NCBI GenBank assembly: GCA_963758695.1
Contig: CAVWWM010000009.1
Location: forward strand, 263,521 to 327,520
Direction of reading: 5' to 3'
Source of the DNA: an uncultured Actinomycetes bacterium
Lineage (GTDB): Bacteria; Actinomycetota; Acidimicrobiia; Spongiisociales; DATADW01
DNA: 64,000 nt
In this document: piece after piece, positions 3,527-48,880 of the stretch
Numbering within the stretch: position 1 is the first letter of the stretch
Layout of the letters: each line of letters begins with the position of its first letter
The notes under the pieces: model-generated
Databases searched by the model: none
What the model saw: the letters and a program-made list of their open reading frames with translations, nothing else
What the model was told of the DNA's origin: nothing
Program-made: the position numbers and the translations under genes

Positions 3527-3545
3527 CTCCAACTCAGGGTTGGAG
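3527..3545 (+). terminator. stem-loop just after the clpB stop
   Basis: CTCCAAC-tcagg-GTTGGAG is a perfect 7-bp stem followed by TTGTCTCTG. The U tract is weak. Confidence 0.35.
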
Positions 3546-3605
3546 TTGTCTCTGTGGCGCGCTTCGAACCCTGGGTTGCGGGGTTGTCGCTGGCAGAATG
3601 TGGCC

Positions 3606-4055
3606 ATGGCCGATGTCACCTTCTCGCCGGAAGGACCGCCCGAGACTGTTCTCCCCGAGGTCGACCCGCAGGTCACGCTGGGTCTGTCGCAGGCGCTCTC
3701 GGGTGATGACCCGCGGCTGACCCTGGCGGCCGTGACCGCCGCCGAGCCCACCGTCTCGCTCAGCTGGGCAACACTCGGCGAGTTGGTCGAGAGCAGCGCC
3801 GCCACGGTTCCGCAACTGGTCGAGTCCTATGCCTATTTCCGCGTTGGATACCACCGCGGTCTCGACGCACTACGGGCCAACGGGTGGCGCGGATCCGGTT
3901 TTGTTCGATGGGAGCATCCATCGAACCGGGGGTTCCTCCGCTGCCTCGATGGGCTGCGGAGGGTGGCGGGGGCCATCGGAGAGAGCGGGGAAGCGCAGCG
4001 CTGCGCCGAGTTCCTCAACCAACTCGACCCAGGGTCCTACCCGGCGACCGCGTGA
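3606..4055 (+). CDS. DUF3151-family protein
   Basis: YAYFRVGYHRGLDALRANGWRGSGFVRWEHPSNRGFLRCLDGL...IGE...RCAEFLNQLDP matches the conserved actinobacterial DUF3151 core. ATG 3606 is preferred over 3540. Confidence 0.65.
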   Translation: MADVTFSPEGPPETVLPEVDPQVTLGLSQALSGDDPRLTLAAVTAAEPTVSLSWATLGELVESSAATVPQLVESYAYFRVGYHRGLDALRANGWRGSGFVRWEHPSNRGFLRCLDGLRRVAGAIGESGEAQRCAEFLNQLDPGSYPATA

Positions 4056-4065
4056 CCGTCGCCGC

Positions 4066-6281: not shown

Positions 6282-7046
6282 CTAGAGGATCTGACTGAGG
6301 AACAGCTTGGTGCGGTCCTCCTCGGGGTCCTCGAAGAAGTGCTCGGGGGTGCCGACCTCGACGATCTGGCCGTCGGCCATGAAGACGACACGATCGGCAA
6401 CGGCGCGGGCGAATCCCATCTCGTGGGTGATCACGATCATGGTCATCCCAGATTGGGCCAATTCCTCCATCACCTCGAGCACCTCCCTGATCATCTCGGG
6501 GTCGAGCGCCGAGGTGGGCTCATCGAAGAGCATCACCTTGGGCTGCATGGCGAGGGCACGGGCGATGGCGACCCGCTGTTGCTGGCCGCCCGATAGCTGG
6601 CCGGGGAACTTGTGCGCCTGTTCGGGGATCTTGACCCGCTCCAGCATCCGATGTGCCAGGCCCTCGGCTTCCTTCTTGGGAAGGTGACGGACCTCATGGG
6701 GGGCGAGGGTGATGTTCTCCATCACGGTGAGGTGGGGGAAGAGGTTGAACTGCTGGAAGACCATCCCGGTCTCGCGCCGGACCTCTTGGATGTGTCGGAT
6801 GTCGTCGGTCAACTCGATGCCATCGACGACGATCCGCCCGCGATCGTGCTTCTCAAGACGGTTTATGCAACGGACCAAGGTCGACTTACCCGACCCCGAG
6901 GGGCCGATCACGACCACCACCTCCTGACGACCGACCCGCATGTCGATCGAGTCGAGCGCCTGAAAATCGCCGAAGAACTTGCTGACGCCCTCCAACTCGA
7001 TGATCGCCTCGCCCTTGGCCTGCGTGGCGTCGGATATCTCTGTCAT
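6282..7046 (-). CDS. amino acid ABC transporter ATP-binding protein (AapP/GlnQ-like)
   Basis: Walker [10 protein letters not shown], signature [15 protein letters not shown], Walker [12 protein letters not shown]. Confidence 0.93.
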
Positions 7047-8290
7047 CTCTCACCCACCCCGAGTCGCTTCTCCAGACGCCGCGCCTCACGCGACATTGTG
7101 TACGAGCCAGTCCAGAAGATGAGGGCGATGAAGGCCAAGGTGATCACGTCGAGACCACGTCCGAGAAAGTCCGGTTGGGTCGTCGCCAGCGTTGAGACAC
7201 GCAGCACATCGGTGAGCCCGATGATCGTCACCAGCGATGTGTCCTTGAAGAGCGATATGAACTGGCCGACCATTGCGGGGATCACCGTCCGCAGAGCCTG
7301 GGGGAGGACAATTAGGCGCGTGGTCTTCCAGGCGGGGAGTCCGAGCGCCTGCGACGCCTCCACCTGCCCACGTCGTATGGACTGGAGTCCGCCCCGCACT
7401 ATCTCGGCGATGTAGGCCGCCTCGAAGGCGGTGATGGCGATCAGGGCCCTGGTCACCTGCCCCGGCCGGAGGTTGACCGGGATGAGGAACCCGAGGGCGA
7501 ATGCAGCCATGAAGAGCAGCGTGATCAGGGGAACGCCGCGGATGAACTCGATGTAACCCACGGCGATGGTCCGCACCACGGGCAAGGTGGATCGGCGGGC
7601 CAGCGCCAGCAGCACCCCAATCGGGAACGCGAAGAGGATCCCGGCCGCTGTGAGGAAGAGGTTCAGGTGGAGGCCGCCCCACTGCTCCCAACCCACACCG
7701 CCCCCGGAGAGCACCAGGTAGATCGCGACCAACAATCCGAGCGCGATCAACCAGGTCCAGCGACGGACGCCGGCGGGGAGCCGCAGCCCGACGGCGTAAG
7801 CGCCGACCCCGGCGGCGACGCACCCCACGGTGAGCAGCGCCGGGATCCAGGTACGGGTGAGCGCCAGCAGCACCCCGATAAGGACGATCACCGGCCAGAA
7901 GCGACGCACCCAGCCCTGCGGAGTTGTGGACCGAGGGGGAGGGAGCCCTGACTCGGCGGCTCGGCCCGTTGCCGTGGCTCGAGCGGCACCGGCCACGACA
8001 CCGATCAGGACGGCGATGAGCCCGGTGGCGACCCAGGGACGCCATAGCTGGTCGCGGGGGAATCGCCCCATCAGGAACAGCAGGAGATTTACCCGGATGA
8101 TCTCCCAGTCGGCCTCGAAGAAGACCCAACGAAGCAGAAGGACTGCGCCCGCCACGAGGGCCCCTCCGACCAGGAGGGTGAGCAGGGTGTTGTACCAGGT
8201 GGAGAACAGGTTGCGCTTGGCCCACTCCCTCGGTCGCAACCTGGTCGATGGCGCCTGGTGCTGCTCGGGGGGAGCAAGCTCGACGCTCAT
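7043..8290 (-). CDS. amino acid ABC transporter permease (AapM-like)
   Basis: The C-terminal half carries the polar amino-acid permease EAA-type region ([18 protein letters not shown]). The start is ATG 8290, in an ATGA overlap with the upstream stop. The 645-aa ORF extension is an overprint. Confidence 0.85.
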
Positions 8291-12330: not shown

Positions 12331-14214
12331 TCAGAGGTTCCGGGTCAACTCGAGGATCCGCGTGCTGATCCCCTCGACATCGAGCCCGGCGGTGCGGAGG
12401 ACCTCGTCGGCGGAGCCGGCGGGGAGAAAGCCGTCACCGATCCCCAGCATCCGCACCTTCCCCGCCATGCCGGGAGTGGACAGCGCCTCGAGCACCGCGG
12501 CTCCGAACCCGCCGCTGACGACATTGTCTTCGATGGTGAGCACCAATTCGTGGTCGCCCGCCCAATCGATCAGCCGCGCGTCGAGCGGCTTGACCCAGCG
12601 GGCGTTGACGACCCGGCACGAGATCCCGTTGCCCTCCAGTCCTATGGCCGCCTTGAGCGCGGGTTCCACCATCCGACCAACCGCAAGGACCAACACGTCG
12701 GTCCCGGGACGGACCTCGTCCCAGCGGCCCACCGGAAGCGCCGGGGCGGGAAGGCTGGGGAGGGCCGACCCGGCCGCCTTGGGGAAGCGGATGGCGATCG
12801 GGCCGGGATGGTCGATCGCCGTCTCGATCATCGAGCACAACTCGTCCGCGTCGGCAGGGGCGCCCACCACCATGTTGGGGACCATCCGAAGGAAGGTGAG
12901 ATCGAAGACGCCGTGGTGCGACGGACCATCGGGCCCGGTCACACCCGACCGGTCCACCAGGAAGGTGACCGGCAGGTCGTGGAGCGCCACGTCGCTGATT
13001 ATCTGATCGAGGGCCCGCTGGAGGAACGTCGAGTAGATCGCCACCACCGGGCGAAGCCCCCCCATGGCAAGACCGGCGGCGAGTGTGACCGAGTGCTGCT
13101 CGCAGATGCCGGTGTCGATCACCCGCTCGGGCATCTCGGTCTCCATGTCGTGGAGTCCGGTGCTCGACACCATCGCCGCCGAGATCGCCACGACATCGGG
13201 CCGCCGCCTCGCCGCATCGAGCAGCGCGGCCCCGGCCACATCGGTCAGCTTGCGCTCTTCCTTGAGCGGCCTGCCGGTGCCCACGTCGAAGGCACCAACG
13301 GAATGGAGGCGGTCGACCTCGTCGGCGATCGCAGGCGGGTAGCCGCGGCCTTTCTCGGTCTGCACCCTGATCACGACCGGTTCGTCGAGCCCCTTGGCCC
13401 TGACCAGCGTCTCCTCGAGCCGCTCGAGGTCGTGGCCGTCGACCGTGCCGGCGTACTTGATACCCATGGCATCGAAGACGGTGCTCGGTTCGACCAGTTG
13501 CTTGAGGCTCTCCTTGAGACGCCTCGCCAGCTCGTCGGCGGTGTCGCCCACAAGCGGCATGCTCCGCAGCACACGGCCGATGGTCCGCTTGACCCACTCG
13601 TAGCGCCGGTCGAGCCGGACGCCAGACAACGTTGCAGCCACCCCGCCCACCGTGGCCTGATATGACATCCCGTTGTCATTGAGCAGTATCACAAACCGAC
13701 GGGGTCTCCGAACCGCGATGTGGCTCAGGGCCTCGTATGCCATGCCACCGGTCAGCGCGCCGTCCCCGATCACCGCCACCGTCCACCGCTCCTCTCCCCG
13801 ATCCTCGGCGGCAATCGCCAGCCCGAGCGCATAGCTCAAGGCGGTGGAGGCGTGGCTGTTCTCGACATGATCGTGGGGGCTCTCGGCGCGCGACGGGTAC
13901 CCGGAGACACCACCGAAGGTGCGCAGCGAGTCGAAGGTGTCGCGACGCCCGGTAATGAGCTTGTGGACATACGCCTGGTGACCGACGTCCCAGATGATCC
14001 GATCGTTGGGGCTGTCGAATACACGATGCAAAGCCAGCGTCAACTCGACGACCCCCAAATTGGGCGAGAGATGACCACCGGTGCGTGCCAGCGTCTCGAT
14101 CAGCCGAACGCGGATCTCAGCGGCGAGGTCGACGAGTTGTTCCGAGGTCAGATCGCGCAGATCGGACGGGTTATCTACTCGGTCGAGGAGTGGCGTCATG
14201 GCTCGGGGTCCCAT
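12331..14214 (-). CDS. dxs: 1-deoxy-D-xylulose-5-phosphate synthase
   Basis: 627-aa ORF with GHLSPNLGVVELT, GDGALTGGMAYEA (TPP motif) and a transketolase-like C-terminal half. Confidence 0.97.
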   Translation of the reverse strand: MGPRAMTPLLDRVDNPSDLRDLTSEQLVDLAAEIRVRLIETLARTGGHLSPNLGVVELTLALHRVFDSPNDRIIWDVGHQAYVHKLITGRRDTFDSLRTFGGVSGYPSRAESPHDHVENSHASTALSYALGLAIAAEDRGEERWTVAVIGDGALTGGMAYEALSHIAVRRPRRFVILLNDNGMSYQATVGGVAATLSGVRLDRRYEWVKRTIGRVLRSMPLVGDTADELARRLKESLKQLVEPSTVFDAMGIKYAGTVDGHDLERLEETLVRAKGLDEPVVIRVQTEKGRGYPPAIADEVDRLHSVGAFDVGTGRPLKEERKLTDVAGAALLDAARRRPDVVAISAAMVSSTGLHDMETEMPERVIDTGICEQHSVTLAAGLAMGGLRPVVAIYSTFLQRALDQIISDVALHDLPVTFLVDRSGVTGPDGPSHHGVFDLTFLRMVPNMVVGAPADADELCSMIETAIDHPGPIAIRFPKAAGSALPSLPAPALPVGRWDEVRPGTDVLVLAVGRMVEPALKAAIGLEGNGISCRVVNARWVKPLDARLIDWAGDHELVLTIEDNVVSGGFGAAVLEALSTPGMAGKVRMLGIGDGFLPAGSADEVLRTAGLDVEGISTRILELTRNL

Positions 14215-14240
14215 GTTGGCACGGCAAGAGAGGCTACTTG

Positions 14241-14282
14241 TCCGCCGTCCGCCGTCTGCCGTCTGCCGTCTGCCGTCTCGCT
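14241..14282 (-). repeat. heptanucleotide tandem repeat, about 6 units (locus B)
   Basis: tccgccg x2, tctgccg x3 and tctcgct end 1 nt from the TAG stop (14284-14286) of the second ABC ATPase gene. Confidence 0.85.
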
Positions 14283-14283
14283 G

Positions 14284-15048
14284 CTAGAGAATCTTGGCGA
14301 AGAAGTTCTTGGTCCGTTCGTGTTGAGGGTTGGCGAACACCTCATCGGCGGGACCCTCCTCCACCACCTTGCCCTCATCCATGAAGACGAGGTGCGACCC
14401 GACCTGCCTGGCGAACCCCATCTCGTGGGTAACCACCACCATCGTCATCCCGGTGTTTGCCAGATCACGCATGACGTCGAGCACTTCCTTGATCATCTCC
14501 GGGTCGAGCGCCGACGTAGCCTCGTCGAAAAGCATCACTTTCGGGGTCATGGCCAGCGCCCGGGCGATGGCGACCCTCTGCTGCTGACCTCCGGACAGAT
14601 GCGACGGCTTCTTCCCAGCCTGCTCCGGGATGCCGACCCTCTCCAAGATCGACCTGGCCCGTTCCTCGGCCTCCTGGCGCTGTCGCTTGAGCACCTTCCG
14701 CTGGGCCACGGTGATGTTGTCCAGAACCGAAAGATGCGGGAATAGGTTGAACTGCTGGAAGACCATCCCCACCTCGGCCCTGACCTGGTTGATGTCGGTG
14801 CCCGACGCCTCGAGATGAACGCCGTCGATGTAGACCTCACCGCTGGTGGGCACCTCGAGATGGTTCATGCACCGCAGAACGGTCGACTTCCCCGAGCCCG
14901 ACGGCCCGACGATGACCATCACTTCCCCCGGTCGCACCGTGAGGTTCACCCCGGCAACGGCATGGACCTCGCCAAACCACTTGTGAAGGTCGCGCACCAC
15001 CACCCGCTCGGTTGGGACGGCTTCAGACACGTTGGAGCCGCCGGCCAT
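14284..15048 (-). CDS. polar amino acid ABC transporter ATP-binding protein
   Basis: [24 protein letters not shown] and MLFDEATSALD. It is a paralog of 6282..7046. Confidence 0.93.
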   Translation of the reverse strand: MAGGSNVSEAVPTERVVVRDLHKWFGEVHAVAGVNLTVRPGEVMVIVGPSGSGKSTVLRCMNHLEVPTSGEVYIDGVHLEASGTDINQVRAEVGMVFQQFNLFPHLSVLDNITVAQRKVLKRQRQEAEERARSILERVGIPEQAGKKPSHLSGGQQQRVAIARALAMTPKVMLFDEATSALDPEMIKEVLDVMRDLANTGMTMVVVTHEMGFARQVGSHLVFMDEGKVVEEGPADEVFANPQHERTKNFFAKIL

Positions 15049-15841
15049 ACCACTGCACCACGAGGGAAAGTATGAGCGTGAACAAGAGGTAGAGAAATGT
15101 CATGGCAAGGAACGTCTCCCGGAACTCGAAAGACGAGTTGGCATAGAGCCTCCCCATCTGGGTGATCTCGCGAACCCCGAGCACTGACAGCAGCGACGAG
15201 TCCTTGAGCATGGCAATGAAGTCGTTTCCCAACGCGGGCAGCACGTTGCGCACCGCCTGCGGCAGGACGATGACCCGCATCGCGGTCCGGTGCTTCATCC
15301 CCAACGAACGGGCCGCCTCCATCTGTCCGACCGGCACCGACTCGACACCTGCCCGGAACACCTCGGCTATGTAGGCGCCGTAGATGATGGTCAATGCAAG
15401 GATCGCCCTCCATTCCTGAGAGATCCGGTTGGCCAACCCGAGGGCGTCGCTCACCTCGGGAACGATCCATAGCGCCACCACAAAGATGAGCACCAATATC
15501 GGGACCCCTCGAACGAACTCGACATAGAGCGTCGCCAGGTTGCGGATGACCACGTTGCGCGAGATCCGCCCCAACCCGGTGAAGAGTCCCACCACAAGTG
15601 CCAGGGCGAAAGCGAGGATCGTCGACCGAAGGGTGACCGGTATCCCCTGTATCACCGCGTCCTTGGCACCGGCATACCTGGGGTCGAAGAAGACCAGGTA
15701 GCCAAGGAAGATGAGTATGCCCACCAGGGCGAAGAACCACCAAGGGGCGTCGACGAGCCGCCGGCTGAGCCCGGGAACGTCGATGGCGGCGTGCTCCAAC
15801 TCAGGGTTGCGCTCAGACTCGGAAACCCGTCTGATGGACAC
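15023..15841 (-). CDS. polar amino acid ABC transporter permease
   Basis: 272 aa, HisM/GlnP-type: RGVPILVLIF and EAARSLGMKHRTAMRVIVLPQA. Confidence 0.9.
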   Translation of the reverse strand: MSIRRVSESERNPELEHAAIDVPGLSRRLVDAPWWFFALVGILIFLGYLVFFDPRYAGAKDAVIQGIPVTLRSTILAFALALVVGLFTGLGRISRNVVIRNLATLYVEFVRGVPILVLIFVVALWIVPEVSDALGLANRISQEWRAILALTIIYGAYIAEVFRAGVESVPVGQMEAARSLGMKHRTAMRVIVLPQAVRNVLPALGNDFIAMLKDSSLLSVLGVREITQMGRLYANSSFEFRETFLAMTFLYLLFTLILSLVVQWYGRRLQRV

Positions 15842-15851
15842 GATCAGCTCC

Positions 15852-15877
15852 GGGGCGCCAGGCTGGCCCGGCGCCCC
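15852..15877 (-). other. intercistronic GC hairpin between the binding-protein and permease genes
   Basis: GGGGCGCC (15852-59) pairs perfectly (8 bp) with GGCGCCCC (15870-77). Confidence 0.5.
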
Positions 15878-15896
15878 TTGCTGTTTCCGGGTGTGT

Positions 15897-16832
15897 TCAG
15901 CCGGTGAACCAGGTGGCGTTTATCTCCTCGAGAGTCCCGTCTTGACGCATCGACTCCAGTGCGGCGTTGACCGGATCGACCAGTTCGCTCCCCTTGGGGA
16001 AGATGAAACCGAGCTCGTCGGACACGAGCGATCCCTGCACCAGTTTGATCTTGTTGGCGTTCTGACCGATGTAGCCCTGGCCAGCGGTGTCGTCGATGAT
16101 CACCGCATCGACATCACCGCCGATCAGTGCTTGGACGGCGAACCCGAACTGCTCGAAGGCCTGGACACGCTCCTGGCCGTACTCGGCGGTCGCCGTCTCC
16201 AGGTTGGTTGTCCCGGTCTGCGTGGCGACGATGTAGTCACCCGCCTTGAACTCCTCGAGCGTGGTGAAGCGGTCCTCATCGATGCGCACCATGAGGCGCT
16301 GCTCGACCGAAATGTAACCATCGGAGAAGTCGACCTGCTTCTTGCGGTCTTCGGTGATGGTGATCCCATCGGCAGCGACGTCGTACTGACCCTGTCCGAC
16401 GGCGATGATCATCCCGTCCCAGGCCGTCTCCACGAACTCTGGTGTGCAGTTGAGCCTCGAGCAGATCTCGTTCCAGGCGTCGTAGTCCCACCCCACCGGC
16501 TCACCGCTGTCCTCGTCGATGTAGTTGAACGGCGGGTAGGCATTCTCCACCGCCACGGTCACAGCCTGGCCGCCAAGATCGGGCAGTGCTGCAGCCGACG
16601 CCGTGGTGTCGGTTGCTGCCTCGGTGGTCTCGGTCGCCATCGTCGTTTCCGCAGCCATGGTCGTGTCGGCCGCAGCCGTCGTATCGGCGGCCACCGTGGT
16701 CTCGGCGCCACCTGCGGCAGTGGTCTCGGCGCCGCCACCCGCAACGGTTGTAGCGGACGTACCGCCACCGCATGCCGCCAGCAACAACACCACCACCAGA
16801 AGGGCAGAAGTCGCCCATCGCTTCCTGATCAT
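15897..16832 (-). CDS. polar amino acid ABC transporter substrate-binding lipoprotein
   Basis: Lipobox LLLAAC, a T/A/E-rich repetitive linker, and a type-3 periplasmic binding domain (PPFNYIDE...GWDYD). Confidence 0.88.
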
Positions 16833-38641: not shown

Positions 38642-39496
38642 TCACCGATTGGGGGCGGGCCGACCGTTCGTCCCCCGCTCCGCCAAGAGGACTTCGAGCA
38701 ATTCGACGCCCTCAACGGCGGTTTCGGCCCATCCGTCCGCTCCCATGCCGGTGGCTTCTTCCTGGTTAGTTCCCCGGCCGCCGAGGATCACTGGAATGTC
38801 CGGCCCAGCGGCGCGCCGAGCCGTTCGAACGGCCGCTGCCAGATGCCTGCGGTTGTTGGACACCACCGCGCCAATACCCACCGCCCTGAGGCGATCGACC
38901 CGTCCGATGGCAGATGCCAGCGAGCCGAGTGGGACATCGCCCCCGAGATCGATCGGCTCGAACCCGGCGCCGAGTAGGACATCACCCGCCATGGCTATCC
39001 CGAGTCCATGCCTGTCGTGGGGTGGCATGGCCAGCACCACCGAACCACGGGTCCTCCCCCTGCGCGCAAAGCGAGGACCGAGCCGCCCTATCAGTCGGTG
39101 GGCGATGGCCGTGGCCAGATGTTCCTGCCCCGGGTCGATCTCGCCGGCAGCCCAGCGATCGCCGATCGACCTCAATGCCGGGCCGAGAGCCTCGGTGTAA
39201 ACCTCCACAGGCTCGATGCCACCGGTGAGAGCAGCCTCGACTATCGCCCAGGCGCCCGACTGGTCGCCACCGAGAAGCCGCGCCTCCATCCGGCTCGCCC
39301 AGTCGGCGCGGCGGCGGGGTGATGTCTCCCCGCGACCGCGCTCGAGAAATCCGTCGAGGTCGCACCGGTCGACCTGCCACACCGACCCGACCTTGTTCGC
39401 CGGCAACTGCCCGAGCCGCACGTAGCGGTATGCCGTCATGTAGTGGACGCCAAGCGCCTGCGCCACTTCCACCAGGCCCAACACGTCACCGGACAC
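38642..39496 (-). CDS. HTH (excisionase/MerR-superfamily) regulator with a cobalamin-binding domain
   Basis: N-terminus LVEVAQALGVHYMTAYRYVRLGQLPANKVG. B12-binding signature DRHGLG (DxHxxG) and a downstream ILGG. Confidence 0.7.
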   Translation of the reverse strand: MSGDVLGLVEVAQALGVHYMTAYRYVRLGQLPANKVGSVWQVDRCDLDGFLERGRGETSPRRRADWASRMEARLLGGDQSGAWAIVEAALTGGIEPVEVYTEALGPALRSIGDRWAAGEIDPGQEHLATAIAHRLIGRLGPRFARRGRTRGSVVLAMPPHDRHGLGIAMAGDVLLGAGFEPIDLGGDVPLGSLASAIGRVDRLRAVGIGAVVSNNRRHLAAAVRTARRAAGPDIPVILGGRGTNQEEATGMGADGWAETAVEGVELLEVLLAERGTNGRPAPNR

Positions 39497-39636: not shown

Positions 39637-39930
39637 ATGGAGAGCCGAGAGGACGGCCAGCAGATTGCCACGATCCTCCAATGGAGGGCGTTGGCATCGT
39701 GCGCCAGGTACACACCCGAGCTCTTCTTCCCGGCGGGAGAGACCGGACTGGCTGGAGCGCAGATTGCGATGGCCAAGCGAATCTGCATCGGCTGCCCGGT
39801 ACGCCAGGAGTGCCTCGACTACGCCCTGGTCAGTAATCAGCGCTTTGGAATCTGGGGAGGGCTCACCGAAGAGGAGCGGCGTCCGGTCCGCCGCCGCTGG
39901 CTGATGCAGACCCGTCGTCTCGTCTCCTGA
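39637..39930 (+). CDS. WhiB-family (Wbl) transcriptional regulator
   Basis: Four Cys residues in WhiB spacing (C...C..C.....C: ASCARY...CIGCPVRQEC) and GIWGG followed by a basic tail. Confidence 0.93.
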   Translation: MESREDGQQIATILQWRALASCARYTPELFFPAGETGLAGAQIAMAKRICIGCPVRQECLDYALVSNQRFGIWGGLTEEERRPVRRRWLMQTRRLVS

Positions 39931-39999: not shown

Positions 40000-40023
40000 G
40001 CGGACTAAGGCCCGGAGGTAACG

Positions 40024-41001
40024 GTGATCGTCGATCAGGCGCTCTACGTCGACGGGAAACGCAGCGAGGAGCCGTTCATCCTCGAAGGTTCGCGCCACGC
40101 CTGCCGCGACCCGAACGTCTTCGCCTGGATCGGCCTCTATGAACCAACCGAGGAGGAGTTTGACGCAGTTGCCGCCGAGTTCGACCTACACGAACTCGCC
40201 GTCGAGGACGGACGGCTGGGTCACCAGCGACCAAAGCTCGAGGTGTACGACGACACCCTGCTCGTGGTCCTCAAGACGGCCCGCTATGTCGATCACGAAG
40301 AAGTGGTGGACTTCGGCGAGATCGCCCTCTACCTGAGCAAGCAGTTCGTGGTGGCAGTGCGGCATGGGCCGGCCACCGGTCTCGCGGGGGTAAGGAAGCG
40401 GATCGAGGACCGTCCTGACCTTCTCGCTCTTGGCCCCGGAGCCGTGCTCTACGGGATCCTCGACAAGGTGGTTGACGACTACCTACCGGTCATGGATGGG
40501 CTCGACAACGACATCCAGGAGGTCGAGAAGGAGGTCTTCTCGGCAGTCGGCGGCGGGGACAACCCTGCGGCGCGCATCTATTACCTGAAGCGGGAAGTGC
40601 TCGAGTTCGACAGGGCTGCCCATCCCCTGCTCGAGCCGCTCGATCAATTGGCCAAGGGCCGCTTCGAGCAGCTTCCAGAGTCGTTGAACTCCTACTTCCG
40701 CGACGTCGCCGACCATCTGACCCGTGTGGTGGAGCAGATAAACCAGTACCGCGACCTGCTGACGTCGATTCTCGAGGCCAACCTCACCCAGGTAGGCGTC
40801 CGTCAGAACAATGACATGCGGAAGATCACCGCCTGGGTGGCGATCGTCGCAGTGCCCACCATGCTCGCCGGCATCTGGGGTATGAACTTCGAATTCATGC
40901 CCGAGTTGAACTCACCATTCGGGTATCCGGCAGCGTTGCTCATCATGATCGGTTCGAGCTTGTTCATCTACCGGAGGCTCAAGAAGAGCGGCTGGCTCTA
41001 G
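40024..41001 (+). CDS. corA: magnesium/cobalt transporter CorA
   Basis: GMNFEFMPEL (the GMN motif) precedes the last TM. The 325-aa length is typical for CorA. GTG start. Confidence 0.92.
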   Translation: MIVDQALYVDGKRSEEPFILEGSRHACRDPNVFAWIGLYEPTEEEFDAVAAEFDLHELAVEDGRLGHQRPKLEVYDDTLLVVLKTARYVDHEEVVDFGEIALYLSKQFVVAVRHGPATGLAGVRKRIEDRPDLLALGPGAVLYGILDKVVDDYLPVMDGLDNDIQEVEKEVFSAVGGGDNPAARIYYLKREVLEFDRAAHPLLEPLDQLAKGRFEQLPESLNSYFRDVADHLTRVVEQINQYRDLLTSILEANLTQVGVRQNNDMRKITAWVAIVAVPTMLAGIWGMNFEFMPELNSPFGYPAALLIMIGSSLFIYRRLKKSGWL

Positions 41002-41025
41002 CTGGTTGACGGCGACGCCCTCGGC

Positions 41026-41697
41026 TCAAGCCAAATCGTCGAGATATAGCGGGAGCATCTGCGCCCAAGTCGGCCAGTCGTGATCGTGCTCATGTCCCCA
41101 AAGATCCACGCGGTTGGGGATGCTCTTCGTCCCGAGGGCGTGGGCCATCTTCCATGTCTCACCCGGGTTCTCCCAGCGCCCCCTCCCCGTGGCGAGCACC
41201 ACGAATCTCCGCCGGAGCTGATCGAGCTGTTCTCCCTCGAGACCGGGTAGGAAGTGAAGCGGCGACGAGTAGTAGACGTCGTCGCTCGAGGTTCCGTGGA
41301 GCCAGGCGGCGAGGTCGTACGACCCGCTCATCCCTATCGCCGCCCGGAACGTCCAAGGGTGCCGGCACAACGAGGCCACCGCGTTGAAGGCGCCGATGGA
41401 GGCGCCTGCCGCGATGATCTCGATGTTGCCGTCGGAACAGTCGGTGCGGATGGCGGGCACCAGCTCCTCGTGGATGAAACCGTCGAACTGGCCCTGGAGC
41501 CAGGCAGAGTGCCGCGGGTCGGCGCCCACCAGCCAGGAGCGCCCGGCGACGCTGTCGCAGGAATAGACCTTGATCCGCTTCCGCTCGATCAGACCCGAAA
41601 GGGCGCCGATGAGCCCCATCCGCTCGATCTCGCCGGCGTCACCGCCTGCGGTGGGGAAGACGAGGATCGGTGTGCCCCAAGACCCCCACCTGGCCAC
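41026..41697 (-). CDS. esterase-family protein (PF00756-like alpha/beta hydrolase)
   Basis: Nucleophile elbow GASIGAF and a C-terminal HDHDW. It is the last gene of the four-gene operon. Confidence 0.65.
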   Translation of the reverse strand: MARWGSWGTPILVFPTAGGDAGEIERMGLIGALSGLIERKRIKVYSCDSVAGRSWLVGADPRHSAWLQGQFDGFIHEELVPAIRTDCSDGNIEIIAAGASIGAFNAVASLCRHPWTFRAAIGMSGSYDLAAWLHGTSSDDVYYSSPLHFLPGLEGEQLDQLRRRFVVLATGRGRWENPGETWKMAHALGTKSIPNRVDLWGHEHDHDWPTWAQMLPLYLDDLA

Positions 41698-41744
41698 CGT
41701 GACATGCTGCCCCAGTCTGTCCGAAAACCACCCGGTGAACTCTC

Positions 41745-42986
41745 TCAGGCTTCACCCCGTGCGTGGTCATCACGCCACTGCTGGATGAGCCCCCAGAAAT
41801 GGTCGGTGAACCGATCCCACTCGTGTTCGGGGAATAGGGCGACGACCTTGGAACGGACCGCCTCGCGCGCCTCGGGGCTGCTGAAGAAGTCGTGCGCCAC
41901 CTCGTCCAGGTCGGCCAGGGTCGTGTCGCAAAACTCCTCGAAGCGCTCGGTCTCGAACCGATCCCTTGCTATGGCACCGTACCCGGCGAGGCACTCCCGG
42001 TAGGGGAGGCCTCGGTCTGCCAACTCGAAGTATGCGTCCCAATCGAGGTTGATCCTCATGGGCCTCTTGGTGATGGCGCAGAACAGCGCCCATCGCACCT
42101 TGGCCATGACCAGCCAGGGGAAGTGGTAGTGCAGCGAGGTCACCTGCGAGTCCGGGCAGGCGTTGGCGAAGTCGATCGGCACAAAGCTCCCGTTGGAGCG
42201 CAGCGCCTCGCACGAGTTGAAGTCCCAACCGAAGAAGCTGTTGATCGTTAGGGCCATGTCCTCGAGAAGCAAGGCCTCATCGGCATCTACGAACCCGAAG
42301 TCGATCGAGTACCGCTCGTGGAGCGGGGCGCCCGGGTCGTAGCGGATGATCCGGGTCTGCGGTCCCACCCCGAGGACCCGGACGAACACGTCCCAGGGCT
42401 CTGCGGCGCGCTGGAGGTGCATGACACGGCGGCCCGACTCCTCGTACGCCCTCTGCAACTGGTCGGCGTCGTCGATCCTGCTCACCCCCACCCAAGCGCC
42501 TCCGTCGTACGGTTTCATGTACATGGGGTAGCCGAGTTCCTTGCCAACCTGGCCGAGGTCGAACAACCGGGCGTAACGCTGCAGGGTTGGCTCCAGGTCA
42601 CTGGTGGGCTCGTACTCCTTGGGTGGGACCATCCAGGTGTCGGGTACTGGCAGCCCGAGCCGCATCATCGCGACATACGAACTGTGTTTCTCCATCGCCT
42701 GGAGGGACCACGGGTTGTTGAAGACATAAAGTTCGTCCATGAGTACGGCCTTCTTGATCCACTCCCGGCTCGTCTGGTACCAGTGGGTGAGCCGGTCGAG
42801 CACGACGTCGTACCGCGTGTCCTGCCGTAGGTCGAACGGCTCGATGGTGACCCGCTCGACTTCTATCCGGTGCGTCTCGCCTTTGTAGGTGACGGCGCCG
42901 AGGCGATTGACGATCCCCTCGAAACAAGCCGGCCAGCAGAGATCCGCCCCCAACGACAGCCCGATGACCCTGGTCGCATCACCCAT
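41745..42986 (-). CDS. ATP-grasp domain protein (uncharacterised ligase)
   Basis: 413 aa with an ATP-grasp-like core (YPMYMKPYDGGAWVGVSRI..., SFVPIDFANACPD). I cannot assign a characterised family. Confidence 0.6.
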   Translation of the reverse strand: MGDATRVIGLSLGADLCWPACFEGIVNRLGAVTYKGETHRIEVERVTIEPFDLRQDTRYDVVLDRLTHWYQTSREWIKKAVLMDELYVFNNPWSLQAMEKHSSYVAMMRLGLPVPDTWMVPPKEYEPTSDLEPTLQRYARLFDLGQVGKELGYPMYMKPYDGGAWVGVSRIDDADQLQRAYEESGRRVMHLQRAAEPWDVFVRVLGVGPQTRIIRYDPGAPLHERYSIDFGFVDADEALLLEDMALTINSFFGWDFNSCEALRSNGSFVPIDFANACPDSQVTSLHYHFPWLVMAKVRWALFCAITKRPMRINLDWDAYFELADRGLPYRECLAGYGAIARDRFETERFEEFCDTTLADLDEVAHDFFSSPEAREAVRSKVVALFPEHEWDRFTDHFWGLIQQWRDDHARGEA

Positions 42987-43030
42987 GACCGACAGGGTAC
43001 GGGAGCGGACCGAACAGGTGAGCGGCTGGG

Positions 43031-44170
43031 CTACTCATATGTCAGCCAGAGCGGTCCGGGGAAGAGATAGGACAATCCCTGTCTCATCCTGTCGCGCCAA
43101 TTCTCCCAGTTGTGCCCGTCGCGGGCTTCGGTGAAGAGGACCTGCATCTCCGCTTGCTGCAGCATCGGCACAAGCGACCGGTTCTCGTAGATCAGCGATT
43201 CATACACACCGCAGCTCACGTACACACGGTCCGCAGGTCGCCCCGGATCGGATCGGAACCGGTTCATCCAGGTGACCACTGGCTCGAACTCGGGGCCGCG
43301 CCGGGTCTGTCCGATATCGGTGAAGGCGAACGATCCTGACTGGAGCATTAGACGCCCCCAGGTATCGGGGTGCATCCATGCGGTCGATAGGGAGGCCACT
43401 GCGCCAAGGCTGGCGCCCATCAGACCTCGCCCCCCGGGCTCGTCGACCAGCGGGTACCGGTCTGCCAGCAAAGGCAGTACCTCCTGGGTGATGTGCCGGG
43501 CGTGGCGGGCGTCGCCGGCGTACTCCTTGAGCCGATTGCCAGGGTCGGTGAAGGCGACGATGAGCGGCGCCACCTCGAGCCGGGTGATCAGGTTGTCGAG
43601 CACATTCCTCAGCGACGAATAGCGCAGGTAGTCGGACCCGTCATGCACCACCAGGAGCGGGTACCTTCGCCCACGCCGAAATCGCGCCGGCAGGTAGACG
43701 TGGAGAGTCCTCCGACTCCTTAGCGCGGCGCTGTCGATTTCCAGGTCCTCGATCGAGCCAGGTCGAGACTCAGGGTCGTGGCCCGCCCATTCGGGGATCT
43801 GGTAGCCCTCGGTGGAGCAGACCGAGTTGGCACCGAAAGGATCGTGTGCCCGCCGGGGGTTGAGCGGGTCGAGGATGGTGTCGCGGTGACCATTGCGGGT
43901 GATCCCCAGCTTGTATTCGATGCGCGACCGGGCGGGGAGATCGATCGAGAGGTGCCACAGCGTCGTGCCGGGAACGCGATCGAATGGCTGGGTGCCGGGA
44001 AGCCCGTAGATCCAGTGGTCCAGGTCGACTTTGTCGGCCTCCCCCACAAACACGAAGGTGGTCAGCCCTTCACCCTGGATGGGGACGCGGTGCCGCTCCA
44101 GGAACCGCTGAAGTGCCGCCTCGCCCCGACGGGCCGCCGCCCGGAGCCGTCGCACCGTAGGGGTCATCAT
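43031..44170 (-). CDS. esterase-family protein with an N-terminal beta-rich domain (enterochelin-esterase-like architecture)
   Basis: GASLGAVASL nucleophile elbow, and HVYLPARF...YPLLVVHDGSDY. The ATGATGA start overlaps the upstream stop. Confidence 0.65.
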   Translation of the reverse strand: MMTPTVRRLRAAARRGEAALQRFLERHRVPIQGEGLTTFVFVGEADKVDLDHWIYGLPGTQPFDRVPGTTLWHLSIDLPARSRIEYKLGITRNGHRDTILDPLNPRRAHDPFGANSVCSTEGYQIPEWAGHDPESRPGSIEDLEIDSAALRSRRTLHVYLPARFRRGRRYPLLVVHDGSDYLRYSSLRNVLDNLITRLEVAPLIVAFTDPGNRLKEYAGDARHARHITQEVLPLLADRYPLVDEPGGRGLMGASLGAVASLSTAWMHPDTWGRLMLQSGSFAFTDIGQTRRGPEFEPVVTWMNRFRSDPGRPADRVYVSCGVYESLIYENRSLVPMLQQAEMQVLFTEARDGHNWENWRDRMRQGLSYLFPGPLWLTYE

Positions 44171-45099
44171 GACGTCTGCTCGATCGGCATCACCGATCCA
44201 TCGGCAGTGAGACGCCGCCCCCCATTGTGGACGGTGACCCGATCCCCGTCGAGCACGACCCATTCGTCTTCATCGAGCGGGACCGCTACCGCCGGTACCA
44301 TCCGCCGGGCAAGCACCGCGGTCCGCACCGGGTCGTCGAGCCGGAGCCGCCGCTTGGCGTGTGGAAACGGCTGCACCGACCGATATCTGGCGAGCCCATT
44401 CTCCAAGACCTCGGTGTTGGCGGCCCCCTGTGGAGGGTTGTCGTGATAGACGAAGACCCTCCGAGCCAAGGCCATGGCTCCAGCAGACCACGCAACCACC
44501 GAGCCGTCTCCCCATAGCCCAACCACATCGAACAGCCGGAGCCGGTTGAGGACCACCACGACGTGGCCCCCGGCGATGGCCAGCAACGACATGCCTCCCA
44601 AGAGCTCAGCCACCTCGGCCCGGTGGCGCGATACCGATGGTCGTTCGGCAAGACGGACCTCGTCGTCCCACGCCGCGTGGACCGCTTTCAACCTCTCGGC
44701 ATGCTCGGTATCGAGGTCGGCCAGCTGGCGAAGGGCGGCCTCCCTCTCGGCATCGAGGTCGTCGCTCTCCCCCTGTCGCCCCATGAGCTGCCGTGCCGCC
44801 TCGAGTGTGTGCCGAAGTCGGACCCGGTGGAGCGACTGCAGCGCCCTGAGTCGGTCCTGCCGTCTCCGATGCGATTCGGCGAGTTCAGGGTCGTCGGCAA
44901 AGACCTCCTCGGCCCGGCGATACAACTCGAGGTTGACCACATCTGTGGCGAGGTGCTCCCGAAGCTCGGAATCGGCCGACTCGAGCTCCTGCCAGCCCGC
45001 CGTGACCAAGCCGACCGGCCCCTCCAGCCCAAGCCGTTGGGTCACCGGGCCCAGCGTCGGCCCGAGACGTTGCGGACCGAGCAGGACGGTGATGGGCAC
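44167..45099 (-). CDS. S51-like (cyanophycinase / peptidase E family) protein with a charged helical insertion
   Basis: LLAIAGGHVVVVLNRLRLFD and VVAWSAGAMAL (SAGA nucleophile context). There is an R/E/L-rich insertion of about 110 aa. Confidence 0.55.
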   Translation of the reverse strand: MPITVLLGPQRLGPTLGPVTQRLGLEGPVGLVTAGWQELESADSELREHLATDVVNLELYRRAEEVFADDPELAESHRRRQDRLRALQSLHRVRLRHTLEAARQLMGRQGESDDLDAEREAALRQLADLDTEHAERLKAVHAAWDDEVRLAERPSVSRHRAEVAELLGGMSLLAIAGGHVVVVLNRLRLFDVVGLWGDGSVVAWSAGAMALARRVFVYHDNPPQGAANTEVLENGLARYRSVQPFPHAKRRLRLDDPVRTAVLARRMVPAVAVPLDEDEWVVLDGDRVTVHNGGRRLTADGSVMPIEQTS

Positions 45100-45165
45100 G
45101 GATGGGAGGGTATCGGCATGGCTTGGAGAGCCAAGGTCAAGTACCTATCCGTCCCCCGAAGGGGG

Positions 45166-45197
45166 GAAGACGGGCAGACGGCAGACGGCAGACGGGA
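45166..45197 (+). repeat. heptanucleotide tandem repeat, about 4.5 units, opposite orientation (locus E)
   Basis: gaagacg ggcagacg gcagacg gcagacg is preceded by the hairpin TCCCCC-gaa-GGGGGA. It is not adjacent to a stop codon. Confidence 0.8.
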
Positions 45198-45242
45198 CGC
45201 ATGGCGGAACACACGTCGAGAGGGTCAGCAAGAATGGGGGTG

Positions 45243-45299
45243 CTGGTCGAGCCGGCGTGTACGGCTCGACCAGCCAAAGGCTGCGCGGCCGAAGGCCGC
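45243..45299 (-). terminator. two stacked hairpins downstream of the deazaflavin-oxidoreductase gene
   Basis: CTGGTCGAGCCG-gcgtgta-CGGCTCGACCAG is a perfect 12-bp stem (45243-45273). GCGGCC-gaa-GGCCGC lies at 45285-45299. There is no clear U tract. Confidence 0.4.
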
Positions 45300-45304
45300 A
45301 CCGT

Positions 45305-45709
45305 TTAACTGCCCGGCGGCTTGCCGCCGGGCAAGACTGTGAACCGGACCAGCGGTGCGGTGGACACCCATGTGTCGAGGTCGGCGCGGGCGCGCTCGGG
45401 GTCGGTGCCCCAGCTCTCGGTGAGGACCCTGAAGAGGATGGCTCCCCGCTCATCGGGGTCGCGGATCGGCTCCGCCACGGCATCCAGGTCTGCGGTCACA
45501 CCACGCTTGAGGTGAAGGGTGAAGCGGGGATCGGCCACCAGGTTCGCCAGCCAGTCGCGCTTGAACCCGGGCCGGCCGCTGATGAAGTGCTCCCCGTCGA
45601 AGGTGTGGAAGAAGATCTCCTTGCGGCGGGGTGCGCCGCTCTTTCTCCCCGTCGTCGTGATGTCCACGGGACCGCCGGCTGCCAACGCTTCCTCGATGTT
45701 GCTGTCCAT
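45305..45709 (-). CDS. nitroreductase-family deazaflavin-dependent oxidoreductase (DUF385-like)
   Basis: TTTGRKSGAPRRKEIFFH...DWLANLVADPRFTLHLKRG resembles the F420-binding split-barrel family. The start is ATG 45709. Confidence 0.6.
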   Translation of the reverse strand: MDSNIEEALAAGGPVDITTTGRKSGAPRRKEIFFHTFDGEHFISGRPGFKRDWLANLVADPRFTLHLKRGVTADLDAVAEPIRDPDERGAILFRVLTESWGTDPERARADLDTWVSTAPLVRFTVLPGGKPPGS

Positions 45710-45804
45710 GGATCCGGCAACGGCGTGGGTCGGGATCGTATTCCGCTGGGAGCCTCGCATGGCGGCCGACCACTACCATCGCCGCTCCACCGTCCCGGAG
45801 GGTC

Positions 45805-47079
45805 ATGCCCGCCACCATCGTTCTCGGTGCCCAATGGGGTGACGAAGGGAAAGGGAAGGTGGTCGACGCCCTCGCCGAGACCGCCGACATGGTCGTCCGT
45901 TATCAGGGCGGCAACAACGCAGGGCACACCATCGTCGTCGGCGCCGAGCGGTTCGCCCTTTCGCAGATCCCGAGCGGTGTCATGTACCCGCACTGCACAC
46001 CTGTGATCGCCTCGGGCTGTGTCGTCGACCCGAAGGTTCTCCTCGATGAGATCGACATGCTGACCGAGCGGGGAATCGACCCAGGCCGGCTGCGGGTGTC
46101 CGGCAACGCCCACCTGGTGATGCCCTATCACCGCAAGCTCGACGCGGTCATGGAGCGCTATCTGGGTAAGAACAAGATCGGGACCACCAAGAAGGGAATC
46201 GGTCCGGCGTATACCGACAAGGTGTCGCGCACCGGGATCCGCTTCCAGGATCTGTTCGACCCGAGCATCTTCCGTGACAAGCTGGAAACCGCGCTGATCG
46301 AGAAGAACAAGATCCTCTCCAGGGTCTACAACCAGCTTCCGATGGAGACGGCGCCCATAGCTACCGAGTACCTGGGGTACTCGGAGAGGTTGTTGCCCTT
46401 CGTCGCCGACACGTCGCTCCTCGTGTGGGAAACGATGAGTGAGGGAGGTGACGTCGTCTTCGAAGGCGCCCAAGCCACCCTGCTCGACATCGACCACGGG
46501 ACTTATCCGTTCGTCACCTCCAGCAATCCCACGGCGGGTGGCGCTCTGACCGGCACCGGGATCGGCCCGACGGCGATCGACAGGGTCATCGGGGTGACCA
46601 AGGCATACATCTCGAGGGTGGGGACCGGCCCCTTCCCCACCGAGCTCGATGACGAGGTGGGTGATGCGATGGTCGAGCTCGGAGGTGAGTACGGGACGGT
46701 GACCGGTCGTCGCCGACGCTGCGGCTGGCTCGACCTGGTGGCGCTGCGCTATGCCGCTCGGATCAACGGGCTCACCGGGCTGTTCCTCACCAAGCTCGAC
46801 ATCCTTTCCCATTTCGAATCGATACGGGTTGCCGTCGCCTACACGTCGCTCGGTGAGCGATACACGGACTTCCCCCGGCAGCAACGCGTCCTCTACAACT
46901 GCGTGCCCGTGTACGAGGACCTCCCCGGCTGGTCGAGCGACATCAGCGGGGTGCGCACCTACGACGATCTCCCCAAGGAGGCGCGCCAGTACATCGATTT
47001 CATCGAGGAGCGCACCGGGGTCCCGGTGGAGTGGGTGTCGGTCGGCCCGGAGCGCCAGCAGATGATCTCGAGGACATGA
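45805..47079 (+). CDS. purA: adenylosuccinate synthase
   Basis: GAQWGDEGKGKVVD, GGNNAGHT and TTKKGIGPAY. Confidence 0.97.
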   Translation: MPATIVLGAQWGDEGKGKVVDALAETADMVVRYQGGNNAGHTIVVGAERFALSQIPSGVMYPHCTPVIASGCVVDPKVLLDEIDMLTERGIDPGRLRVSGNAHLVMPYHRKLDAVMERYLGKNKIGTTKKGIGPAYTDKVSRTGIRFQDLFDPSIFRDKLETALIEKNKILSRVYNQLPMETAPIATEYLGYSERLLPFVADTSLLVWETMSEGGDVVFEGAQATLLDIDHGTYPFVTSSNPTAGGALTGTGIGPTAIDRVIGVTKAYISRVGTGPFPTELDDEVGDAMVELGGEYGTVTGRRRRCGWLDLVALRYAARINGLTGLFLTKLDILSHFESIRVAVAYTSLGERYTDFPRQQRVLYNCVPVYEDLPGWSSDISGVRTYDDLPKEARQYIDFIEERTGVPVEWVSVGPERQQMISRT

Positions 47080-48392
47080 AGGCGCTCCTCGTCGGTGGGG
47101 GCGGGCGGGAGCACGCACTGGCATGGTCGATGCGGCGTAGCGGGTCGTTGCGCGACTTGCTCCTCTTGCCGGGAAACCCCGGGATGTCGGCCCTTGGCCA
47201 TCGAATCGAAGGCGTCGAGCCCACCGACGTCGGAGCAGTGGCGGCCGTCGCCGCTGCCCAGCGGGTGGATCTGGTGGCGATTGGCCCCGAGGCGCCGCTT
47301 GCCGCCGGGCTGACCGATGCTTTGACTTCCCGCGGCATCCCGGTGTTCGGGCCGACCAGGAGCGCGGCGAGGCTGGAATCATCGAAGTCGTTCGCCAAGG
47401 AGATCATGCGAAGGGCTGGGGTCCCCACCTCGACCGCTGCCGTCTTCAACGAAACGGCCGCAGCCCACGACCACCTCAGCAATGGCACCGGTCCTTTTGT
47501 CGTCAAGGCCGATGGGCTTGCCGCAGGCAAGGGCGTCCTCGTGACCGAGGACGTCGACGCAGCACATCGCTGGGTGGACCGGTGCTTCGGCGGCGACTTC
47601 GGCACCGCGGGGAGCGTCGTCCTCATCGAGGACTTTCTGGCGGGTCCCGAAGTCTCGATCTTTGCCTTGTGTGCCGGCGGCAAAGCGGTGACGCTGACGC
47701 CGGCGCGCGACTACAAGAGACTCCTCGACGCCGACCTGGGACCGAACACCGGAGGCATGGGTGCCTTCTCCCCGGTTGAGGATCTTCCCAGCGGGCTGGT
47801 CGAGGAGGTGCGTGACCAGGTGATCCTTCCCGTCCTGAGGGAGATGGGCGAGCAGGGCGACCAATACACGGGGTTCCTCTATGCGGGATTGGTCCTGACG
47901 GAGGACGGTCCCCAGGTGCTCGAGTTCAACTGTCGCCTCGGTGATCCCGAGGCGCAGGTGGTGCTTCCCCGGTTGCAGGACGATCTGGTCGGGGTGATGC
48001 TCGGCGCAATCGAGGGGAGCCTGCCCGAGACCCTGGGGTGGTCACACCGCGCTGCGGTCGACGTGGTGCTCGCCTCGGCCGGCTACCCCGACCACCCCCG
48101 CACCGGCGACCGCATAGGCGGGACCGATTCCGCTGCCGACCTCGAAGATGTGCTCCTCTTCCACGCCGCAACGGCAGGCGATGCCCGACGGCCGCTCACC
48201 GCAGGTGGCCGTGTACTCAACGTCGTCGGGCTGGGCGACGACACCGCTACCGCCCGCCGACGCGCCTATGAGGCGGTGGATCTGATCGGATTTCCCGGAA
48301 TGCACTACCGAACCGACATCGGAGCACCGATCTCCCCTGTCTCCGAGACCGGTACCGTGCCCGCTCCAGATCAGAGGAGTGTGATCGCTTGA
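47076..48392 (+). CDS. purD: phosphoribosylamine-glycine ligase
   Basis: [17 protein letters not shown] and an ATP-grasp core. ATGA overlap with the purA stop. Confidence 0.96.
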
Positions 48393-48880
48393 CCTCTTCC
48401 GATGAGCCGAGGAGCGGCCGGGGCCGCGTGGCGATTCTGATGGGCTCGGGATCGGATCGGCCCGTGATGCAACGCGCTGCGGACACGCTGGAGCAATTCG
48501 GTGTGGACCACGAATTCAGAGTGCTCTCGGCCCACAAGACCCCGGACGAGGCGTTCGCCTTTGCCGCATCTGCCGCCGATGACGGGTTCAAGGTGATCAT
48601 CGCCGGAGCCGGCAAGGCGGCGCACCTGGCAGGTGTGATGGCGGCCAAGTCCACCCTCCCCGTAATCGGGGTCCCACTGGCAGCGTCCCTCGATGGCCTG
48701 GACTCGTTGTTGGCGACCGTTCAGATGCCGACCGGCGTCCCGGTGGCGACGGTCGCCATAGACGGTGCGGTCAACGCCGCGCTGCTCGCCGTCTCCATCC
48801 TCGCCCTGTCGGACGACGATCTAGCTGCTTCGCTGGTCAAGTACCGGGTCGACCTGGCCGAGGCGACCCTGCGGGGTTGA
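48389..48880 (+). CDS. purE: 5-(carboxyamino)imidazole ribonucleotide mutase
   Basis: [14 protein letters not shown] and [26 protein letters not shown] start overlaps the purD stop. Confidence 0.93.

Follow-up and report, generated by a model that had tools for sequence, protein, structure and literature searches.

A synthetase-plus-hydrolase logic is already known from cyanophycin, where the ATP-grasp ligase CphA is genetically paired with the S51-fold hydrolase CphB. Here we describe a four-gene operon with a comparable pairing in a 64,000-nucleotide stretch of DNA (hereafter the window) from an uncultured Actinomycetes bacterium. The operon occupies positions 41026-45099 of the window, and all of its features lie on the minus strand. 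Its genes encode an S51-like serine hydrolase of the class I glutamine-amidotransferase fold (gene A), a two-domain esterase (gene B), an ATP-grasp enzyme that forms the core of the module (gene C), and a single-domain PF00756 esterase (gene D). As with CphA and CphB, both the ligase and the S51-type hydrolase are cytosolic, and a role in a reserve is plausible. In contrast to CphA, C is a single ATP-grasp enzyme whose N-terminal region is its own and whose C-terminal domain is helical, and it has no significant match to the cyanophycin synthetase models. A is set apart from CphB by a helical insertion of ~110 residues and by variability at its canonical His position. The A-B-C-D unit also differs from CphA/CphB by the addition of two PF00756 esterases and by the linkage of the locus to the glycogen genes glgA and glgC.

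Parts of the module resemble other described enzymes. C shares its ATP-grasp core with the l-amino acid ligases RizA, BL00235, and BacD (YwfE), a clade that includes three paralogues encoded near C in other genomes (G1, G2, and G3). C is no member of this clade, as only the nucleotide-binding core aligns, and the window lacks G1-G3. B has the same two-domain build as Fes/IroD and the CBM48-CE1 feruloyl esterases, with conserved Ser and His. Unlike these enzymes, B is cytosolic and encoded in an operon with an ATP-grasp enzyme, and no siderophore or xylan-utilization genes surround it. The top structural neighbors of the C model are MdnB and MdnC, ATP-grasp enzymes that form esters from carboxylates and hydroxyls; chemistry of this type would explain the esterase partners of C. 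In contrast to the MdnB/MdnC systems, there is no precursor-peptide gene, and C is larger and far more conserved than enzymes acting on peptides that are ribosomally synthesized and modified post-translationally (RiPPs).

In many phyla, the module is embedded among genes of the classical glycogen pathway (GlgC, GlgA, GlgB, GlgP, GlgX, and MalQ). To our knowledge, the described pathway includes no ATP-grasp ligase, S51 hydrolase, or PF00756 esterase. Literature searches found no publication joining glgA, glgC, and ATP-grasp, and no description of the A-B-C-D cluster, within a coverage that was incomplete, so an existing description is possible. A search for an amidoligase survey and a term search of a graspetide phylogenomics paper returned nothing on the cluster. 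An initial annotation of the window, made from the sequence alone, had likewise known of no pathway with this gene set. The superfamilies are familiar, as is the pairing of a synthetase with a hydrolase; the gene combination, the conserved unplaced ligase, and the embedding in a glycogen locus are not described.

The four genes are closely packed in a translationally coupled operon. Gene A (310 aa) spans 44167-45099. Gene B (379 aa) spans 43031-44170 from an ATG overlapping the stop codon of A, with the longest open reading frame (ORF) reaching 44263. Gene C (413 aa) spans 41745-42986, and gene D spans 41026-41748, encoding 223 aa from a GTG at 41697 or ~240 aa from a CTG at 41748. Direct reading of the sequence reveals an ATGATGA stop/start overlap between A and B (44164-44170; junction gtcATGATGAccc), in which the TGA of A (44169-44167) lies inside the ATGATG of B. 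This 4-nt overlap was called likewise in two related loci (L087 and L090). B and C are separated by 44 nt, from the TAG at 43033-43031 to the ATG at 42986. Both of these junctions stand as initially annotated, while the 47-nt gap proposed between C and D does not, as it is probably coding.

This nominal gap (41698-41744) is an open frame that extends D upstream and begins just past an in-frame stop (41754-41752). Translation of this frame gives LREFTGWFSDRLGQHVT, which can be aligned to the N-termini of D homologues called at 241-243 aa. Across the 17 codons upstream of the GTG, the window and L090 (a 92% identical relative) differ by 7 synonymous and 2 non-synonymous changes. The pattern indicates that the C-D spacer (41698-41748) is under selection at the protein level. 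Based on the open frame, the conserved N-terminus, and the codon differences, D most likely starts at the CTG at 41748, a non-canonical start that overlaps the TGA of C as CTGA (41745-41748). The operon would therefore be tighter than first described. The same CTGA is shared with the relatives L001 and L090, while L088 has a 4-nt C/D overlap; overlapping junctions were also called in L087, L088, and L090. Taken together, placement on one strand, minimal spacing, and an order kept in distant genomes mark A-B-C-D as an operon.

To delineate the distribution of the module, a one-genome-per-species scan for C was performed, yielding 590 matching stretches. The loci studied were the best 80, nearly all of them contigs of metagenome-assembled genomes (MAGs), from Actinomycetota, Myxococcota, Acidobacteriota, Planctomycetota, Alpha- and Gammaproteobacteria, Eisenbacteria, and Gemmatimonadota. 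Synteny was counted in the 40 loci flanked on each side by 5 kb or more, in which genes were placed by tblastn mapping of the window proteins. These 40 span seven phyla (Actinomycetota, Myxococcota, Acidobacteriota, Planctomycetota, Pseudomonadota, Eisenbacteria, and Gemmatimonadota). A-B-C-D was found in the same order and on the same strand in 24 of 40 loci, and shorter collinear sets were B-C-D (4 of 40), C-D (7 of 40), and A-B-C (2 of 40). C stood alone in the remaining 3 of 40. The gene set is thus syntenic well beyond the Actinobacteria, and on this cross-phylum synteny a chance adjacency of the four genes is rejected. The two relatives L001 (the closest, with C 96% identical) and L090 share the full window neighborhood, comprising purE-purD-purA, an F420H2-reductase-like gene, ABCD, CorA, and WhiB. 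In L001 (4880-6952), A and B are split over several frames, probably through indel errors in a long-read MAG and not as pseudogenes. ABCD is under strong purifying selection.

The neighborhoods of C in other genomes also revealed a physical linkage to glycogen genes. glgA lies within 7 kb of C in 13 of the 40 loci. The linked glgA scored 530 bits against TIGR02095 (cut-off 328), and the linked glgC passes TIGR02091 in several loci. By our own estimate, two single-copy genes would fall within 7 kb of each other by chance in well under 1% of genomes. The recurrence of glgA across several phyla therefore argues for a functional or regulatory link. Clustering of the flanking ORFs, followed by tblastn mapping, identified G1, G2, and G3 as ATP-grasp paralogues of ~405 aa each, forming orthologous groups that are 45-65% identical across phyla. 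In 26 of the 40 loci, these paralogues were mapped no further than 7 kb from C. All three fall in the l-amino acid ligase clade, matching RizA (4wd3, E 1e-33) as well as BL00235 and BacD (E 1e-33 to 5e-22).

The arrangement of these genes varies between loci. In L046, glgA-G1-A-B-C-D lie on one strand, and in L030, L045, and L069, G3 and G2 are divergent from G1-A-B-C-D (G genes of L030 at 786-4692). In L004, C is found beside glgA, glgC, G2, and G3 without A, B, or D. The most extensive island, on a 4.7-Mb contig (L087), comprises malQ, glgP, an alpha-amylase-family gene, glgC, G1, A, B, C, D, glgA, G2, and G3 (G genes at 6552-7772 and 13584-16032). Neither a glycogen gene nor G1-G3 was found near the operon in the window or in L090. 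As the window lacks these neighbors, ABCD is the autonomous core.

Homologues of C form more than 7,200 clusters at 90% identity, nearly all of them named 'hypothetical'. Cultured carriers include Haliangium, Nannocystis, and Mariniblastus. Across phyla, identity to the window protein is 59-71%, and 117 positions are at least 97% conserved among 81 sequences. C passes no Pfam or NCBIfam cut-off (PF07478, 18.5 bits against 24; NCBIfam Ddl, 23.5 bits against 262). Its sub-threshold matches were to D-Ala-D-Ala ligase (Ddl) only, and none of RimK, LysX, cyanophycin synthetase, or the other named ATP-grasp families was matched above cut-off. Profile searches against the PDB gave a match confined to residues 138-182. 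The sole stretch matching solved ATP-grasp enzymes by sequence is the ATP-binding motif GYPMYMKPYDGGAWVGV (42483-42533, with Lys158), which matches known families in the pattern GxPxxxKPxxGGxxxGV. EK100, K158, E260, D272, and N275 show no variation even among relatives at 30% identity, and they align with their counterparts in l-amino acid ligases. A predicted Mg/ATP-ligand region, E260 ... D272-F-A-N275 ... P278-D279 (42150-42209), is invariant family-wide. Comparison with the l-amino acid ligase paralogues by hhalign (97.4% probability, 141 columns) aligned E260 with E275 and D272 with E287 of these enzymes.

Structure comparison led to the same superfamily. The best 50 Foldseek matches of C were all ATP-grasp folds, including MdnB/MdnC, ITPK1, Ddl, RimK, PurK, synapsin, and LysX. 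The top matches were MdnB and MdnC (E 2.5e-5), with template modeling scores (TM-scores) of 0.4-0.5 obtained from a low-confidence model. The C-terminal domain (residues ~289-413; 41748-42122) is predicted to be all-helical and is specific to the family; its AlphaFold2 (AF2) helices run from H289-306 to H387-409, with a predicted local distance difference test score (pLDDT) of 81-96 over the block. Foldseek revealed no counterpart of this domain among the aligned ATP-grasp structures. Long C homologues contain fusion partners only as B-C or C-D read-throughs, the remainder having no Pfam match. C is an ATP-grasp superfamily member with intact ligands, in an uncharacterized family of its own. 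The initial annotation had described it as a 413-aa ATP-grasp protein that could not be placed in a characterized family, and both profile and structure searches bear this out, mapping C to no housekeeping family.

More distant relatives provide a view of which partners are conserved. Representatives at 50% identity include 1,551 C relatives, among them full-length proteins at 29-47% identity. Two divergent relatives are encoded directly downstream of a long S51 protein of 464-486 aa (L081, 5305-7991; L091, 4540-7230). This partner is homologous to A, including the helical insertion, which is larger there (hhalign 97.5%). Its presence in a divergent C subfamily marks the ATP-grasp/S51 pair as the oldest association. 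The glycogen association also recurs in one divergent relative, as a C homologue of 29% identity lies 2 kb from a GT5 glycogen synthase. L081 and L091 both carry DUF3806 and HEAT-repeat genes just upstream on the opposite strand. In a single case, L082 (4118-7837), a C homologue of 47% identity and a MATCAP-family (PF08014) peptidase gene converge at close range, an adjacency that may point to a connection with systems that ligate and remove peptide tails. The neighbors of this homologue were considered as relatives of A and D and proved unrelated by profile comparison.

The S51-like nature of A was recognized through its homologues and its fold. The window protein itself has no Pfam or NCBIfam match. 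Among 26 homologues, 23 match PF03575 (Peptidase_S51) at E up to 1, and several score above the gathering threshold (26.4-48.9 bits against 23.9). Sequence searches of the PDB with the single sequence, a family profile, and an insertion-free profile returned no S51 entry; the fold search alone finds S51. With the AF2 model of A (pLDDT 89; predicted TM-score, pTM, 0.89), Foldseek PDB ranks 1-19 were all S51 enzymes (E 1.7e-7 to 1e-4). These neighbors (6nqc, 7uqv, 7uqw, 6a4r, and 3en0) include an acI actinobacterial peptidase, pseudo-CphB, peptidase E, and cyanophycinase.

The S51-like assignment of A, its SAGA nucleophile context, and its helical insertion had all been proposed initially, and each holds. 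The nucleophile motif is WSAGAM (44473-44490; Ser205); all 40 homologues keep W204, G207, and A208, and 39 of them keep S205. The insertion (residues ~59-167; 44599-44925) is a hallmark of the family and is modeled as helices H59-69, H71-107, H113-148, and H154-167. We take the canonical S51 His and Glu to lie ~37-42 and 69-72 residues past the Ser, as in PepE and CphB. His247 (44359-44361) has the canonical spacing, yet it is His in only 28 of 40 homologues. H179 (44563-44565, in GGH) and H219 (44443-44445, in HDxPPQG) are present in 40 of 40 and are family-specific, and D276 is conserved in 35 of 40. The fold and nucleophile of A are S51-like, and the variable H247, together with the two invariant histidines, suggests a rearranged catalytic center in this S51 subfamily.

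Both esterases were also assigned as first proposed. B matches PF00756 with 81.5 bits (E 1.1e-22; cut-off 22), as do 24 of 24 B homologues. Its architecture consists of an N-terminal E-set/Enterochelin_N-like beta-sandwich followed by the PF00756 alpha/beta hydrolase; PF11806 scored 24 bits on the window protein, under its cut-off, and was matched by 22 of 24 homologues. The closest PDB match is Fes (2b20, E 1.8e-12), followed by ferulic acid esterase entries (8bbp/6rzn) that we take to be CBM48-CE1 enzymes. Assignment of B as an enterochelin esterase was rejected, since its 91.7 bits fall well short of the 222 required by the NCBIfam equivalog NF007758; the likeness is architectural only. The nucleophile elbow GASLGA (43400-43417; Ser254) is part of a conserved set in which G252, A253, S254, G256, and H353 are at least 97% conserved in 51 homologues. 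D matches PF00756 with 28.3 bits (cut-off 22). It contains the elbow GASIGA (41389-41406; Ser100), and S100 and H206 are at least 97% conserved. No signal peptide or hydrophobic stretch was found at any of the four N-termini when read directly from the sequences.

Our data lead us to propose, tentatively, that ABCD is a cytosolic build-and-break module for an ester- or amide-linked compound within the glycogen-storage program. C would use ATP to activate a carboxylate, most plausibly of an acidic amino acid, as an acyl-phosphate. It would then couple this carboxylate to a hydroxyl or amino acceptor, forming an ester or an amide. B and D would hydrolyze or transfer ester linkages; the E-set beta-sandwich of B is of a type by which CE1 esterases dock on polysaccharides. 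A would cleave an aspartyl-type (iso)peptide bond in the product of C. The acceptor or product would be the alpha-glucan itself or a peptide made alongside by G1-G3, as suggested by the presence of G1-G3 and glgA/glgC in the same locus in most phyla.

Precedents for these steps come from the superfamilies. ATP-grasp enzymes can make esters, as exemplified by VanA and the graspetide ligases. Given this precedent, and as two of the three partner hydrolases are carboxylesterases, at least one ester bond in the product is probable. The architecture of B has been found in enzymes for small-molecule esters (Fes) and for polysaccharide-bound esters (CBM48-CE1). Among S51 enzymes, the characterized PepE and cyanophycinase act on aspartyl bonds, a specificity that suggests an acidic amino acid among the components of the product. 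The initial annotation had envisioned that these enzymes make and turn over an amide- or ester-linked product, a storage polymer being one example; the siting in or next to glycogen loci alongside G1-G3 and the divergent S51/ATP-grasp pairing lend this hypothesis support. A more specific version of our proposal holds that bacterial glycogen is covalently decorated. Here, C, with G1-G3 where present, would attach amino acids or short peptides to alpha-glucan hydroxyls through ester bonds, and B, D, and A would strip them before mobilization. We regard this version as improbable; if true, it would amount to a combined carbon-nitrogen reserve.

Alternative readings share parts of this evidence. 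In a cyanophycin-like scheme, C (with G1-G3 where present) would polymerize amino acids into a nitrogen-rich reserve independent of glycogen, A would depolymerize it, and the glycogen genes would be co-regulated neighbors. The ATP-grasp and S51 pairing follows CphA/CphB logic and recurs in the divergent subfamily, cyanophycinase and pseudo-CphB are among the structural neighbors of A, G1-G3 belong with l-amino acid ligases, and the window operon stands without glycogen genes nearby. We nonetheless consider this scheme doubtful: a pure polyamide would have no need for two carboxylesterase-type hydrolases out of three, C has only 413 aa and lacks the Mur-ligase-like domain of cyanophycin synthetase, and co-regulation poorly explains interleaving with glgC and glgA in single transcription units. 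The high conservation of C (59-71% identity, 117 positions) would also fit recognition of a conserved macromolecule, as expected if C attaches amino acids to a side chain or the C-terminus of a protein in the style of RimK or tubulin-tyrosine ligase, perhaps on a glycogen enzyme, with A, B, and D removing the tag. RimK and peptide-modifying ATP-grasp ligases are among the Foldseek neighbors of C, and one divergent homologue lies beside the MATCAP-family carboxypeptidase gene. That adjacency, however, was seen in one case only, no candidate target protein is conserved in the operon, and three hydrolases of two folds seem excessive for tag removal, making reversible protein modification quite improbable.

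The structural matches of C could be read in other ways. As ITPK1 and an Asp1/PPIP5K kinase appear at Foldseek ranks 8, 14, and 20, C might be an ATP-grasp kinase of the inositol-phosphate-kinase type that phosphorylates a sugar or glucan hydroxyl, the hydrolases acting elsewhere. Its Mg-ligand motif is D-x-x-N, compared with the E-x-N typical of ligases, and a glycogen locus would suit a sugar or glucan substrate. A kinase is very unlikely, as C aligns best with amino acid ligases by profile, no phosphatase is found among the partner hydrolases, and the structural matches are weak and non-specific. The rank of the microviridin macrocyclases MdnB and MdnC as best Foldseek matches, and of enterochelin esterase as the best solved relative of B, would instead be expected of a secondary-metabolite cluster, either a graspetide RiPP in which C makes side-chain esters or the salvage of an enterobactin-like siderophore by a Fes-like esterase. 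Such a cluster is extremely unlikely, and both of these readings were rejected. The junctions (ATGA, 44 nt, and CTGA) leave no space for a precursor gene and no conserved small ORF was seen; the TM-scores of 0.4-0.5 are shared with Ddl, RimK, and ITPK1; and the 91.7 bits of B fall far below the Fes equivalog cut-off of 222. The conserved set contains no transporter, nonribosomal peptide synthetase (NRPS), or TonB genes, and ~70% conservation across phyla is unlike that of accessory biosynthetic clusters.

Several points weigh against our proposal of a glycogen-associated build-and-break module. The chemistry is extrapolated from superfamily membership, and the substrate and the tie to storage physiology are inferred too. 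In the central domain of C the AlphaFold model is weak (pLDDT 69), rendering its structural neighbors non-discriminating. With the canonical His in 28 of 40 homologues, A may differ from PepE and cyanophycinase in its action. The glycogen link is facultative, being absent from the window and L090, and could reflect co-regulation of separate storage pathways instead of a common substrate. Lastly, the loci compared were chosen as the 80 best matches to C and are nearly all MAG contigs.

Bacterial glycogen metabolism is treated as a closed enzyme set of GlgC, GlgA, GlgB, GlgP, GlgX, and MalQ. In the loci described here, from at least seven phyla, glgC and glgA are interleaved with as many as four ATP-grasp ligases and three serine hydrolases, with C at the center of the set. 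A functional link would mean that carbon storage in abundant bacteria of soil, sediment, and marine settings (Acidobacteriota, Planctomycetota, Myxococcota, Actinomycetota, and others) involves an undescribed product or modification. Were the link regulatory only, the module would still represent a new ATP-grasp/S51 synthetase-hydrolase system that is cyanophycin-like in logic. Given the size of the C family, one biochemical assignment would annotate thousands of 'hypothetical' genes.

The surroundings of the operon in the window were also inspected. The G+C content is 64-69% throughout the window, and the long antisense ORFs at the operon are ordinary high-GC shadows. The presumed promoter region of the operon is the intergenic stretch of ~200 nt (45100-45304, minus strand) that separates A from the adjacent minus-strand gene. 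Scans detected no sigma-70-like site, terminator, or Rfam element in 45100-45304; an Rfam scan of 40000-46500 gave one chance-level match only, and a repeat search gave nothing beyond short chance matches. The gene directly upstream of the operon (45305-45760, minus strand) is F420H2-dependent quinone-reductase-like, and across a divergent intergenic region lies a purA-purD-purE run (45805-48880, plus strand) in which purA and purD overlap by 49 nt. Both features are the same in L090. In one other locus (L089, 4769-5866), the ABCD copy has a GCS2-family (YbdK-like) carboxylate-amine ligase gene 2 kb upstream, a single case that may be coincidence. On the other side of the window operon, a minus-strand gene (38642-39496) encodes HTH_17, B12-binding_2, and B12-binding domains, the set found in CarH/LitR-type light-responsive regulators. 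This regulator gene adjoins a WhiB-like gene (39637-39930).

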